A DNA stretch of 64,000 bases, taken from NCBI GenBank assembly GCA_017654855.1, contig CM030338.1, positions 2,542,001 through 2,606,000 on the forward strand, read 5' to 3'. This DNA comes from Podospora anserina (taxonomy: Eukaryota). Made by a program: the position numbers and the translations under genes. The notes below the pieces were generated by a model. The model did no database searches and was not told the DNA's origin. It saw nothing but the letters and a program-made list of their open reading frames with translations. Below, piece by piece: positions 1 to 6,261 of the stretch; positions within the stretch are counted from its first letter, which is position 1; each line of letters starts with the position of its first letter.

Positions 1-728
1 AGGTGGGTGGGTTGGTGAGGGAGTTGGCGGAGTTTTATGCGCAGGCGTATCGTTATGGTGGGTGTGGTGGTGAACGGAGAGGGAAGGTTGGGGGGAGTTT
101 GGAGGGGCGGTTGGTGATGTTGAGCGAGGGACTCCCTGCTCGTTTCCGACCGTTTGTGTCTCCTGTTCTTGGAGAGCTTTCTGGGATTGTTGAGCTTCCT
201 TGGGTGCTTACACATGGGGATTTTAGCGCGGATAATGTTATGGTGAGGTTGGAGAGCGCTGAGAAACGGAAGGAAAGGGGTAAAGGGAGGTCGAGGGGTG
301 GTGAGAAGTCGAAGCGGGAGTTGAGGTTGAAGGCTGTGATTGACTGGGCCGAGGCTGAGTTTTTGCCGTTTGGGACGGGGTTGTATGGGTTGGAGAGTAT
401 ACTGGGACATCTTGATCGGCTGAACACGTCTAATGTAGAAGAAGTAGGAGGGAGGTCTCGATTAAGAGAGATATTCTGGTCTGAGTTAGCAAGTCTGATA
501 CCCCAACTGAAGGCAGATGAGAAATTCTACGAGAGGGTGAAATTGGCCGGTTTGATGGGCGTGCTATTTTGGCATGGGATAGCATTCGACAACGGGGCAC
601 TTGACCGGGTTGTTGAGGAGGGGAGGGATGATGAGGAGATTGGGCTGTTGGATGAGATTTTGTTTGGTGAGGGGAGTGAAGACTTTGCCGAGTTAAAAAG
701 CAAAAGAGTCGAAAACTCCAAAAAATGA
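1..728 (+). CDS. Aminoglycoside phosphotransferase (APH)/choline-kinase-like protein, 3' part (5' end lies outside the window)
   Basis: ORF has the APH-family motifs 'LPWVLTHGDFSADNVMV' (Brenner HGDxxxxN) and 'AVIDWAEAEFLPFG'. Confidence 0.75.
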   Translation, partial: VGGLVRELAEFYAQAYRYGGCGGERRGKVGGSLEGRLVMLSEGLPARFRPFVSPVLGELSGIVELPWVLTHGDFSADNVMVRLESAEKRKERGKGRSRGGEKSKRELRLKAVIDWAEAEFLPFGTGLYGLESILGHLDRLNTSNVEEVGGRSRLREIFWSELASLIPQLKADEKFYERVKLAGLMGVLFWHGIAFDNGALDRVVEEGRDDEEIGLLDEILFGEGSEDFAELKSKRVENSKK

Positions 729-809
729 ACCCGCAACCTCAGTCCTCAGAGCAGGGAGGTACAGCACGAGCCACATTATATTGTGGTTAAAACCACTGCG
801 CCAACTCAC
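720..809 (-). ncRNA. Candidate ~90-nt Pol III-type small RNA or truncated tRNA-derived element
   Basis: Minus strand has a perfect A-box TGGCGCAGTGG (803-793), the tRNA-like tail GAGGTTGCGGGTTCA, then T6 (725-720). The 5' and 3' ends can pair. No canonical cloverleaf. Confidence 0.4.
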
Positions 810-1110
810 ATCCTATTGAATGTTGCGATACTTGGAGGGGCAGAAAGGGAGCCTATATGCTACTGATGAGAGTGATGGGTTGCTCTTGCCGATTTAGGGG
901 AGGCATGTGAAATGGGAAGGAGCGACCTGGGTGCTCCTCCCTTGACGGGACACAGGGTCACGCGGCTACCGAGGAATCCCCTCTTTTCCACCACCCCATC
1001 AGTTCTGTTTTTGTGGTAGTGGCCTCACCTCCTTCTATGCTTACTAGTACTTCAACATCCCTATACACCTAAAACCGACCGTTCTACCTAACTCTTTATG
1101 ATAATAGGCC

Positions 1111-3181
1111 ATGTCACCCGCTTCCCAACCAATTCAAATCACCAAAAAACGCCTGGTCATCTGCTGTGATGGCACGTGGATGAACAGTGACACGGGCTAC
1201 AGGAAATCATCCTACCGGAACCCTATTGGAAAAACGGCTGTTCCGTCCAATGTCACCCGTCTCTCCCGGTCTTTACGTCGGTCATGTACAGATGGAACTC
1301 TTCAGGTCATTGATTATCACTCCGGAATTGGCTTAAGTGGCAGTTTCGCAGATGTTTTATCCGGCGGTGCTTTTGGCTTGAGCATCTTTGAGGTGTGCCT
1401 CAGTCAAAGTACTGAAGCAGTCCGCACATGCTTACAGAGTTTCAGAATATCCGGTCAGCCTACTCCTTCATATGTGCCAACTATACCGATGGTGATGAGA
1501 TCATCCTTGTGGGCTTCTCACGGGGAGCCTTTACCGCAAGGTCAGCTGCGGCAATGGTCTCGGATCTAGGGCTCCTGACCCGCGAAGGCATGGAGTATTT
1601 CTACCCCATCTACAAGGACAGGCGGCATTGGCGGGATACCAAATATAAGGATCCTTTTCCGGATACACCGTTTAGTGATAAGCCCAAAGGGGATGATGCT
1701 TCACGGAAGTATCGAGAGATGCTTGTCGAGGTAGGCTTGTTCTCTCTATTTTTGTTCATGAGTGCTAAGTTACAATGATTAGAAGGGTCTCACACGCATC
1801 CATCAGAACCATGAGAACAGGTCACTGATCAAAGTGAGGGCTGTTGGTATGTATACTTGTCCCAATCATCAAAGGGTATAGTTTGTTGCGGTGGACGTGA
1901 TACTCACGCTCAAATAGCCGTGTAGGACACTATTGGAAGCTTGGGAATACCCCATTCAACCGCCGAATTTCGCTTACTTGACACTGACTTGTCAGATCGT
2001 ATCGAGTATGCCTTTCATGCACTTGCCCTCGATGAACACAGGTCCTCATTTATACCTACAGTGTGGGAGCGCACCGTTGATAACCTGGGTGCCACAGACT
2101 TACGCCAGGTTTGGTTTCCAGGCAATCATGGAAATGTAGGCGGGGCCTGGAAAGATGCCGGAATGTCCGACATTACTTTGGCTTGTGAGTGCGATTTCTT
2201 ACAACTATCAATCCTCACTAACATCCTCCAGGGATGATGGATCAGCTTGCGTCCATTGGCGTCGAGTTTGATGAGGCAGTCATCATGCGCCTTTTTGACC
2301 AGCTTGAACACTCTTACCGCGACATGGCTGAGAAAGACCCCAAGTGTACGCATGCACAGAAGCACCCGAGACCAAGCAGGCCGTTGATAGAAGTCGAACC
2401 ACCTCCAATAGAGTCGAACAATCTCCCAGAATGGGTGCGATTCCGACTGCGAAGTCTTTCAACGGCAACCGATACTGGGAAGAAGATCATCGGCGAGAAG
2501 CACTGGGCCATCAAGCCCATCTGCGCAAGAAATATCCCCCTTCGACCCTGGGCGCTCGGCGCAATTCGCGGTTCCAAGGCTGCCGGATCCAAAGTTCGCT
2601 CACCATGCGCCTATAAGAAGAGAGATCCTATCACCGGAAAAAAGACCAAAGACTTCCTCGAGGATACCAACGAGCGGATGCATAGCTCTGTGCGTGTCCG
2701 TCTCGCGTTAGAGGGGCTTGGGCTCAACGACAAAGGTGTCTGGGAAGCTCCGGCACTGAAAGGGAAATGGGCCTTGCGAAAGACCACTCGAGAATTTTTG
2801 GATCCCATCCCCAAAACTGTGACATCCTGGGAGAAAAGTACCGCATCAGCTGCAACAACATCCTGGAAGAAGAAGCTGGACCTGTCCAACAATCAGACTG
2901 CACACAAACAAGATGACGACGAGTCGCTGGCTGCTTCAAATGCCGCAACGTTAGTAGAGACGGCAGTTGAGCAGCAGCGCCCGTTGCAGGCGATGGATAA
3001 CAAGGGTTACAGGTGGGTTTGGGAGTATTGTGGCAATGCGAAGGATGCACCACCCCAGAAGGTGATGGTAGAGGAGCAGCTGGGGCCGTTTGAAAGACAG
3101 TTGCTGAGATTGTTAGGGGGTGTGCCAAATGTGTATGAGTTCGCCGAGACGGTGGAGCGGATGGATGGGAGGAAGGTGTAA
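1111..3181 (+). CDS. DUF2235 / Tle1-like alpha/beta hydrolase, 5 exons (1111-1392, 1446-1730, 1783-1846, 1918-2184, 2232-3181), with one in-frame TAG at 1923-1925
   Basis: Motifs KRLVICCDGTW, SNVTRL, GFSRGAFTAR, V*DTIGSLGIP, AFHALALDEHR, QVWFPGNHGNVGG and LAWMMDQL. All four GT-AG introns have branch sites and consistent phases. Confidence 0.88.
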
Positions 3182-3476
3182 ATGTGGGGCAGTAACGCCA
3201 AGCAAAGATAGGGGGTAGCCCTGGTTGCTGGGTGAAGGAAAAGGAATATGTCAACAAACATCACTTTGCTCAACGTGATGGATGTAAAGATAGAATGGCA
3301 ATGGGTGAGAGTGTGTAGCAAGGTATCGCTGCAGTAAAAACAAAGTTATGTGTATCATCCATCTATGCCCGCTGCGCGCCAAGAATGAGATGCAAAGATC
3401 CTCGGCTTTGGTTCACAGAAACTCTAGCTTTTCCTCTGCAAGTCTCTATAGTTACTTCATCCTCCTCTCAGCCCAT

Positions 3477-4110
3477 TCAAAGCGGTCTTGATCTGCATCT
3501 TGAAGAGCTTTTCTGGTCTGTCTCTTGATCAGACTTGGTTTGTACTTTTTTGGCTGCTTCGATATGAGCTACCAGACGGGTTTGCTTTGTCTGCGCCGAG
3601 CTTTGCTTGCACGGGCGACTGGCGTGAGTAACCTCGGAGTTTGAGTCTCTCTGGGGAGGAATCTTTGGCTGACAAGGCTGTGTAGGTGGGCTTGGGTCTG
3701 GCGAGGCTTGGGTGGTGTTGGCTGGTAGTGAGAGGGTACTGTAAGCTGGTGGTGAGAGGGTGCTGTAAGCTGGTGGTGGGGTCAATCGTGGGCCCAGTGG
3801 TGGACTTGGTGATGGGCTCAATGATGATGCGCTGTATGATGTGCTCGATGTTGATGTGCTCCATGATGCGCTGTATGATGCGCGCGATCGTGTGCTCGAT
3901 GATGTGGTCTGTGATGTACCCGATGGTATGCTCCGTGATGAGCTCGATGGTATGCTCGATGATGCGCTCAATGATGCGCTCGATAATGCGCTCGATGTCG
4001 TGGGCTCGGGATCATATGAATCCTCGATAGGCTGTACAACTCTTGGCAGGGAGTTGCAAGGAGATGTCCTTGTTGTATTTCTCCTGAACCGCCAGATCTG
4101 TCGGTTGATG
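3477..4110 (-). CDS. Possible Ser-rich orphan ORF with two PPAY motifs; start not resolved
   Basis: Open frame ...SASSSIPSSSSRS...PPPAYSTLSPPAYSTLS.... No in-frame ATG found and no recognisable domain. Confidence 0.25.
3815..3997. repeat. Degenerate 12-bp tandem repeat (consensus ~GATGATGCGCTC)
   Basis: Repeated units gatgatgcgctc / gatggtatgctc / gatgatgtggtc / aatgatgcgctc. A separate 24-bp duplication lies at about 3725-3777. Confidence 0.8.
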
Positions 4111-4734
4111 GCAGCATTACTCTATGAAGTCTACGACGGAAAAGCCCATTGGGAGACTTGGGACTGGGACGTGTGGAGGAGTTGAACAAAGGGATGTCCA
4201 TGGCAGTGGTTTATGATATTTCTACTGAGTTACACGTAGCTGGTAGCCTGGCATGGGGAAAATAAATGGTATAAAGACACTGGAAACTGACTGCCTTCTT
4301 AGGTCTCGTGGCTTTCAGGACATGAAGTTGGCAGCGGGAAATCAGGAAGCAAGTACTTTCCAGTCCTCTCTTATGGCAGTGACACGCTGTTGGCAAAAGT
4401 TCAGGCACATGAAGTAAGTGGGTAGCAAATCAAGACATTCTGTCATCAAGACCTTCTTCTATTTCGACATTATCATATACTTCACCTCACCTCACTAACA
4501 GAAACCATCAAATTCCCCAAACTACCAGGAACAAGAAATCTCGTCCTCAATCACAAGATTCAATCCCCATCACCTCTCAGGTCACAATTTAAGCTCCACG
4601 GAACTCCCGTCAAGACAACGCCTCTTTACGGCCCTACAGACCCAGCCAGCTGCCAACCCGAGCCACCGCCAGTACGTCAGGACCCAACACAGACAGAGAC
4701 TATTTGACTTGAAATTCGGGCGCACACATCCGTG

Positions 4735-4808
4735 GCGTGCGTAGTATAGCGGTATTACATTCTGCTCGCCGAGCGAAGGACTTAGGTTCGAATCCTGACC
4801 ACTCACCA
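4735..4808 (+). tRNA. Non-canonical tRNA-like gene or tRNA pseudogene (possible GCC anticodon, Gly)
   Basis: A-box TAGTATAGCGG (4742-4752), intact T-arm TTAGG-TTCGAAT-CCTGA (4782-4798) and a downstream T7 tract near 4838-4844. Acceptor and anticodon stems pair only with bulges. Confidence 0.6.
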
Positions 4809-6261
4809 GAATAGCGTATTTGGCTTCCAGCGTTTGCATTTTTTTGGACTTAGAATTGTCTGTGGCAATTATTTTTCTTTTCAGATAATAGACATCATTC
4901 ACCGCCAGGTTCCAATTTCTGTTGCAGTTACAATTGATCTATGGAGGTAATTGAGGGTTAGGAGCATGAAGAGACAGACATGTAGCGTTTCTTGACCAGG
5001 TACATAATGATGTTTAACATCAAAGGCACAGTGACTATATTACTGAATCCCAATGAATAGTTTCTTTCCTTGAATTTGAACTTTACACCAGACTCTCAGG
5101 AGGAGGCCATCATTGTGAGAATAACAAAGGGTTATTCACAAGACATTCACATTCATAATATATTACTGGCAGCGGTGTCAACCATCGAGAAAAACATCAC
5201 GATTAGCAAACACTTCAACAGAAGAAGACTTATCCTTCTATCTGAAGATTGCCAAGTTTGCCATCCTTTTATTTTTCAGTTCTTAAACAACCGTATATGC
5301 TACAGGAAAATAATCGCTCTACCCACGAGATACTTACACACGAAACCACCTGCCCGACATCAAGTCAGATAATTTTCCCAATCTCCTAGGTATTTACACG
5401 ATATAGAACCAAAACCTGTACTGTCTGTTCCTTTCCCTCACTGGACGACGACAAGTCTTCACCACCCTCTGGTCCATTTGCCTGAACTCTTCAGAAAGTT
5501 CGGACTTGCTTCACATCTACACCCGCATGTAGCGCTTGGGGGGTGATGGGGGAGGCTGGCCGTTTTGCAATGGACAATCCAGCGTCGGTGACTGGAAAGG
5601 TGGAGCGTTGTCGCGCTTTCTTGGGTGCTACCGAGGCAGAGTATGGTTGTAGGTGGCTTGAAGAACAGGTCGGGAGACATGCCTCAGTGTAGTCCTTGTG
5701 GTCGTCCTCATCTCCACTGGGTGATTCGCCGATGAAACTGGCTCGCTGAGTTTGCCACCAAACCGTCTTGGGTTTGCCATCGAGGTCTGTGAATAGAGTC
5801 CGGTTTGGGGGAAGTCCTCAAAGGCAATAAGGTTGGTAAGCAAGAGGCAGAAAGGGAAGACCTCTATTAGGATCGAATGTAAGCGCCCAAGCCACCTAAA
5901 AGGTATCATGAATAGGCGGGGATGGTATGCCCAGCGCCGTGGGCAGGACACTCTTGAACATGTACAGACGAGTAGTTTATCGCGAGGGCATGGGTGTTAT
6001 GTGAGGTAAGGTTGATTGAAATCTTTTTTCGTGTAGAGGTATTGTGGCATGAGTATATATAACATGGTGTCTTGCAGAAGATAGAGAGAAACATTGGAAG
6101 GATCCTTGATAGTTTTATACCCAAAGGTCGAAGAGCTTGCGCCACGTAACTTCTCGTCACGACACCATTCCTTCGCGATGACGATAATGAGGAGCCAGAA
6201 CGTGATAGAAATTGGCACAACAAGAATCATTGCTGTATTGGATTGAGTAACATCTTCCAGC

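Follow-up and report, generated by a model that had tools for sequence, protein, structure and literature searches.

In the fungi Fusarium graminearum and Neurospora crassa, adenosine-to-inosine (A-to-I) editing of mRNA takes place in the sexual stage, is carried out by ADAT enzymes and is reported to favour a U at position -1 and purines at +1 and +3 relative to the edited A (PMC11156358; PMC10776026). Restorative editing of a premature stop codon (PSC), from UAG to UGG, is reported for dozens of supposed pseudogenes, among them 71 genes of F. graminearum (PMC10776026; PMC11156358); their stops are described as conserved, sometimes lost and sometimes re-acquired (PMC10776026). A preprint on the same species gives 20.7% as the share of UAG stop codons in edited genes that undergo editing (10.1101/059725). 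One F. graminearum gene, CHE1, has a conserved premature stop, the editing of which is reported from vegetative hyphae exposed to oxidative stress (PMC11169179). A second described system is that of the bacterial type VI secretion system (T6SS) effectors Tle1 and TleB (PF09994); the Tle1 family is characterized by the Ser of a GXSXG motif, the triad Asp of FXGXXD and the His of PGXHXDIG (PMC10395195, PMC12421835). Here we describe Pa_7_8780, a gene of Podospora anserina chromosome 7 that lies in a 64,000-nucleotide stretch of genomic DNA (contig CM030338.1, positions 2,542,001 to 2,606,000 of the forward strand; the whole stretch is called the window below). It encodes a DUF2235 / Tle1-like protein, the reading frame of which is interrupted by a single TAG. 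Restorative A-to-I editing of this codon from UAG to UGG, at A1924 of the window, is the best explanation that we can offer, with an estimated probability of about 0.65.

Like the PSC genes, Pa_7_8780 shows UAG in place of a sense codon (Trp) inside an otherwise intact, transcribed open reading frame (ORF), with U at -1 and a purine at both +1 and +3; related species keep the stop, some lineages have lost or regained it, and automatic annotation breaks or bends the gene models at it. Unlike them, editing in Pa_7_8780 is proposed, not demonstrated, the stop adjoins the putative catalytic Asp, and at least five lineages, from several orders, have it at this one codon. With CHE1, which is reported to be expressed outside the sexual stage, the gene shares a conserved in-frame stop, and its own transcripts occur in four sequencing runs with no recorded stage or stress. 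The catalytic domain with its three motifs is common to Pa_7_8780 and to Tle1 and TleB as these are described (PMC10395195, PMC12421835), whereas the Podospora gene is fungal and intron-bearing, with a C-terminal region of about 300 residues that has no Pfam domain, and with no secretion-system context. The ADAT genes of P. anserina are reported to be up-regulated during perithecium development in a preprint (10.1101/2024.12.09.627484), in the consulted portions of which editing appears as background only. The word “editing” does not occur in Lelandais 2022, and our literature search found no paper naming Pa_7_8780 and none combining DUF2235 with A-to-I editing.

Pa_7_8780 lies in the first 3.2 kb of the window on the plus strand, and its closest protein matches come from the loci ending in _708780 and from PODANS_7_8780, in the P. 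anserina species complex; at residues that differ among these species it agrees with P. anserina S mat+. Twenty sequencing runs contain the stretch, of which 14 look like RNA (word share 0.68–0.85, 19–29 Mb of contigs), none being recorded as such. Contigs from four probable RNA runs of four studies (X1, X2, X4 and X11), of unrecorded developmental stage, were aligned on positions 1000–3300; contigs keep the major letter only and say nothing of a minor edited fraction. The features of the gene are as follows.

1047..1107, plus strand: intron in the 5' untranslated region, 61 nt, GT..AG, ending 3 nt before the ATG; the joint from 1046 to 1108 is seen in a single contig, of run X11 only.
1111..1392, plus strand: exon 1, with the ATG at 1111, residues 1–94; PF09994 at 53.1 bits; joint 1392/1446 in three of the four runs.
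1446..1730, plus strand: exon 2, residues 95–189, with GFSRG at 1512–1526; PF09994 at 87.4 bits.
1783..1846, plus strand: exon 3, encoding KGLTRIHQNHENRSLIKVRAV and ending in phase 1; contig joints at both sides.
1847..1917, plus strand: intron 3, 71 nt, GTATGT...TACTCAC...AG; the joint (skipping 71 nt, GT..AG) is found in X1, X4 and X11, and the intron is retained in an X2 contig.
1918..2184, plus strand: exon 4, with the TAG, DTIGSLG (1926–1946), ALDEHR and PGNHGNVGG (2118–2144); PF09994 at 89.3 bits with the stop given as X.
1923..1925, plus strand: the in-frame TAG, codon 213, replacing an aromatic residue before putative catalytic Asp214; the base proposed to be edited is A1924.
2232..3181, plus strand: exon 5, residues 301–615 and the stop TAA; no Pfam domain, open and conserved to the last residue.

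Scripted splicing of the five exons yields 1848 nt, that is, 615 codons and the terminal stop, with a single internal stop, around which the spliced reading is ...LIKVRAVAV-stop-DTIGSLGIP.... Introns 1 to 4 measure 53, 52, 71 and 47 nt and all are of the GT..AG type. Introns 2 and 4 are spliced in all four runs and intron 1 in three of them; intron 3, the acceptor of which is the first AG past a branch-point-like CTCAC, is removed exactly in three runs and retained in a contig of the fourth. A first-pass annotation, made from the letters of the window, had described an in-frame TAG in an otherwise intact DUF2235 gene, with an intron at 1847–1917 and with GFSRG, ALDEHR, PGNHGNVGG and the splice sites preserved, and this description is confirmed by the sequence, the scripted splicing and the contigs. 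The domain PF09994 (DUF2235 / T6SS Tle1-like catalytic domain, curated cut-off 27 bits) is matched above its cut-off by exons 1, 2 and 4, at profile positions 1–77, 80–159 and 181–282 of 287, respectively. The 315-residue product of exon 5 gave no match in a Pfam scan and is a fungus-specific C-terminal part, and a search of the PDB sequences with the W-bearing orthologue P0008 returned no chain at E ≤ 0.01. Among the Logan ORFs, P0133 and P0138 cross the spliced exons and end in ...RAVAV, and P0132 begins at the first start-like codon past the stop and is spliced through to the normal C-terminus.

An error of sequencing or assembly, or a misplaced intron, was considered as an account of the stop, and an assembly error had been one of the alternatives put forward by the first-pass annotation. 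It is refuted by the contigs, which carry the TAG in four separate studies, are identical in every letter and have their splice joints where predicted; moreover, the independent assemblies of five other species must avoid the same codon, and the chance of an artefact is negligible. Origin through repeat-induced point mutation (RIP), also proposed earlier, finds nothing in its favour beyond the trivial match of TGG>TAG with a G>A transition: this is a single change, no cluster of such changes exists in the gene, and the candidate was discarded as uninformative.

The stop lies within the putative active site. The triad of Pa_7_8780 was assigned by motif match with Tle1, not by structure. The nucleophile motif GXSXG is present as GFSRG at residues 117–121, with Ser119; the Asp motif is present as AVAV-TAG-D, with Asp214 at 1926–1928; and the His motif is present as PGNHGNVGG, with His281 at 2127–2129. 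By this assignment, the TAG would directly precede the catalytic Asp of the Ser-Asp-His triad, and a product ending at it consists of 212 residues that contain the Ser and lack the Asp and the His, so that it cannot be an active hydrolase. Among the best 120 relatives, the column of codon 213 holds W in 79, F in 28, Y in two and A in one, the motif being absent in the remaining 10. The row with A is a codon-avoiding gene model, and several of the 11 rows that are non-aromatic or without the motif are bent gene models. The Trp that had been called conserved is thus the commonest residue of a column that is aromatic, not strictly Trp. Between close relatives this column switches among W, F, Y and stop; as TAG to TAY to TTY are single steps, some of the Y and F states might, speculatively, descend from a TAG stage.

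The stop is shared within the P. anserina complex: codon 213 is avoided in the public gene models of each of the five further species annotated. The MAKER models of P. pseudocomata, P. bellae-mahoneyi, P. pseudopauciseta and P. pseudoanserina join KVRA directly to DTIGSLG, which means that an AG must stand directly before the GAC in these species. The P. comata model skips the codon, a P. comata-like ORF (P0137) begins just past it, and an older P. anserina model leaps from intron 2 into LGIPHST; in the protein cluster P0005, W at codon 213 occurs in none of the 15 members examined of 16. Avoidance within the complex is by itself weak evidence, because its species are reported to be more than 98% identical in sequence (PMC10936905).

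More distant relatives extend the pattern. The Cercophora samala model reads AVGTYDTVG, which is the reading obtained if 8 nt from the start of the intron (GT ACN TAY) are gained at the donor and offset the 8 nt (CC GTG TAG) that drop out with the TAG as acceptor. The Triangularia verruculosa model leaps from AIAV to EYRFYD, as fits a false donor GT/GTAG, and that of Apiosordaria backusii runs from RAV to GSLGIP through an in-frame acceptor 18 nt downstream; the Diplogelasinospora grovesii model (P0071) shows the same avoidance as A. backusii. A tree of 74 full-length proteins (the window protein and 73 relatives) groups the P. anserina complex with C. samala, T. verruculosa and A. backusii in a single clade, in which every model avoids the codon, and the sister taxa of this clade have W (Cladorrhinum) or F (P. 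fimiseda). A stop private to one strain, which the first-pass annotation had allowed for, does not agree with codon avoidance in the models of five complex species and of three more distant species.

At least 11 deposited models in 10 species look bent round the codon (P0005, P0125–P0129, P0006, P0007, P0021, P0071 and P0218), by means of spurious donor or acceptor sites, omission of the codon, reading through an intron or a stretch in another frame. The models of Triangularia setosa (P0175) and Xylaria nigripes (P0149) also appear broken near it.

The frame downstream of the stop is as well preserved as that upstream. Identity to the window protein upstream and downstream of the TAG is 79% and 86% for C. 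samala, 79% and 77% for T. verruculosa, and 83% and 76% for A. backusii. The insertions and deletions in the open exons 4 and 5 relative to these species are all in frame, the last 70 residues are free of gaps, and of the 164 columns in which 72 other full-length relatives show conservation of at least 90%, the window protein retains 156. The genic DNA of C. samala is reported to share only about 86% identity with that of Podospora (PMC10936905), and with the downstream part conserved over this distance the gene is not in recent decay; judging from these comparisons, an untranslated frame would not be expected to show such conservation. A genuine stop that is not confined to one strain, is followed by a conserved frame and recurs in other orders (see below) is the signature described for editing-corrected stops in Fusarium (PMC10776026).

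The same codon is a stop in lineages outside this clade. These were found by searching with the N-terminal fragment as query and with a five-member profile of truncated N-termini (best 120 of 669 matches). P0142, the N-terminus of which is identical to that of Nemania serpens P0218, ends exactly before the codon-213 column, and so do P0147 and P0223 of Verticillium longisporum/V. dahliae, P0152 of V. albo-atrum, and P0221/P0158 of one further fungal lineage. The V. nonalfalfae model P0225 reads ...KAIAYWDTVGSLG (...AIAYWDTVG), with W at the codon. P0231, from another lineage and retrieved among the best 120 of 669 matches to the profile, ends at the same codon, and P0052, a 407-residue ORF that starts a few residues past the codon, is possibly its downstream ORF, the contigs of the two having an equal length of 2253 nt. 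Introns cannot explain these ORF ends, since a codon opening an intron starts with G, not T. Two other ORFs flagged by script as ending at the codon (P0246 and P0257) were dropped by eye for their out-of-frame tails. For Nemania the identity of the stop can be deduced: the stretch RILLGLWVYR of N. serpens P0218, decoded by hand, is the +1-frame reading of DTVGSLGIPD, which forces a codon ending in AG, and with P0142 stopping there the stop is TAG.

The closest relatives of each stop-bearing lineage have W or F. On a FastTree tree of 115 rows, built from the N-terminal columns only and omitting 44 of 159 rows (other states, short N-termini and near-duplicates), the stop trait requires six changes for the six direct stop rows, and seven when the four codon-avoiding models are added; branch supports near the stop rows range from 17 to 94 and the exact number of changes is soft. 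At least five distinct lineages, of different orders, have a stop at codon 213.

A conserved stop followed by a conserved frame could also be circumvented by splicing. In run X2, the contig that retains intron 3 ends at 1940 and a downstream contig begins exactly at 1924, the overlap of 17 nt being less than k-1. This break may be a sign of one more form of transcript that merges at 1923/1924, such as one in which exon 2 continues at 1926. The corresponding alternative is a minor isoform that joins another donor to the AG of the TAG, giving an in-frame product with 4–24 residues fewer. The earlier statement that using the TAG as acceptor would shift the frame is correct for the 1847 donor, but donors at 1843 (that of the public models), 1834 and 1731 (at the end of exon 2, exon 3 being left out) all keep the frame, at the price of conserved residues. 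An X2 contig starting exactly at 1924 would fit exon 2, ending in ...GAG, joined to 1926, and the A. backusii and D. grovesii models do use an in-frame downstream acceptor. However, none of the contigs of the four runs supports any of these three donors with the TAG acceptor, their junction rows show no exon 2 joined to 1926, and the 1917 acceptor is used in three of the four. Every such isoform would lose the strand before the catalytic Asp, and one of the A. backusii type would lose the Asp itself and hence activity. The downstream AG of the A. backusii model is absent in P. anserina (ACT ATT GGA), leaving no single bypass that is conserved, and the residues AV just before the TAG are conserved. 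We regard this splicing alternative as improbable.

Translational read-through, or another recoding of the UAG that leaves the RNA unchanged, would explain the conserved stop and the conserved downstream frame equally well. To our knowledge, UAG-GAC-ACU is not a known read-through context, those known being of the UGA-CUA and UAG-CAR-YYA types; read-through also leaves unexplained why the stop is TAG in both lineages in which it can be deduced (Podospora and Nemania). We rate it as a very improbable explanation, behind the splicing bypass.

Restorative editing would account for these features as follows. Pa_7_8780 would be a functional gene, the full-length product of which needs the recoding of one codon. 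An ancestral UGG (Trp) directly before the triad Asp would have become a genomic UAG, and the unedited mRNA would give at most the 212-residue fragment. During sexual development, A-to-I editing of the ADAT type would deaminate A1924; the resulting UIG would be read as UGG (Trp), and the 615-residue enzyme, spanning ...AVAVWDTIGSLG..., would be made only then. We infer both the editing itself and its restriction to this stage. The first-pass annotation had proposed such editing, and its interpretation is supported in part by the present results. The stop would thus act as an on-switch rather than a lesion. The immediate context of A1924 is G at -2, U at -1, G at +1, G at +2, A at +3 and C at +4, so that four of the six flanking positions (-1, +1, +2 and +3) carry the preferred nucleotide according to the preferences reported around edited A residues (PMC9600606).

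Several observations weigh against this reading. The agreement with the editing-site preference noted in the first-pass annotation stands for the U at -1 and the purines at +1 and +3, but the G at -2 and the C at +4 are depleted nucleotides. The hairpin loop that forms part of the preferred context is not robustly predicted: in folds of the spliced mRNA, A1924 lies in a stem with flanks of 20, 50, 75 and 100 nt and in an internal loop with 30 nt, and only with 40 nt is it placed in a hairpin loop. None of the four runs differs from the window at any letter, the spliced transcripts carrying UAG with A at 1924. A search of the published table S1, with the 71 PSC genes known from F. graminearum, gave no DUF2235 gene, and our literature search found no A-to-I editome of P. 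anserina. For A. backusii, T. verruculosa, C. samala and D. grovesii, it is the protein models from which we deduce the TAG. We know of no sexual stage in V. dahliae, and sexual-stage editing cannot be the present explanation there. Finally, the complex as a whole has an in-frame deletion of 11 residues after DTIGSLGI (PNTTLFAKLGL in relatives; 1947–1949 in the window) and a second in-frame deletion, of five residues, farther on, both segments being kept in every other relative aligned; it also has its own substitutions GGGW>GGAW and HRP>HRS at conserved places. Such lineage-specific changes could reflect relaxed constraint in the complex.

The same deletions and substitutions at conserved places are what would be expected of a unitary pseudogene, or of a remnant gene of 212 residues, in which TGG>TAG became fixed in an ancestor, a transcript is still made and the downstream part decays slowly. 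About seven derived residue changes in P. anserina relative to its sister species point the same way, as does the exclusive presence of A at 1924 in the contigs, and the sharing of the stop among species as similar as those of the complex (more than 98% identical, as reported in PMC10936905) proves little alone. Against slow decay, the 402-codon downstream ORF is open and is conserved like the upstream part relative to species that are about 14% diverged in genic DNA, as reported, with insertions and deletions in frame, and the codon is avoided across the whole clade. At least five directly evidenced lineages share the position of the stop, which is not expected of independent random nonsense hits. 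As to a remnant gene, the fragment without the Asp and the His could not be an active hydrolase. Loss of function is therefore unlikely, although it ranks ahead of the splicing bypass and of read-through.

Restorative editing as such is already known, and the unusual part of this case is the repeated stop at one catalytic-site codon. A broader proposal concerns fungal Tle1-like hydrolases in general, in which the codon preceding the catalytic Asp would have evolved repeatedly into an on-switch that depends on editing; we put it forward tentatively, at somewhat less than even odds. The same Trp codon would have turned into UAG independently, or would have been long kept as such, in Podosporaceae, Xylariales, Verticillium and at least two further lineages, and a potentially membrane-damaging lipase would be finished only where mRNA editing is active, a convergent recruitment for stage-specific control. 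With a stop in several independent lineages and Trp or Phe in neighbouring ones, a single catalytic-site codon constitutes a natural experiment, through which the DUF2235 family makes the debate on adaptive versus tolerated restorative editing directly testable. If editing at A1924 is true, Pa_7_8780 would be the first documented editing-restored gene of P. anserina, a long-standing genetic model in which mRNA editing is apparently unmapped. Annotation pipelines aware of editing would call the bent gene models correctly.

Regarding the surroundings of the gene, the 3' end of an upstream gene occupies 3–728 on the plus strand and resembles the APH phosphotransferase family below threshold (17.5 bits against a cut-off of 23.2). 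A tRNA scan of positions 1–6000 of the window found none. Downstream, a minus-strand ORF at 3477–4121 encodes 214 Ser/Thr-rich residues with no Pfam match; it contains tandem repeats of 24 nt (3710–3778) and of 12/36 nt (3823–3997), the latter with about 14 copies of a GATGATGTGCTC-like unit.

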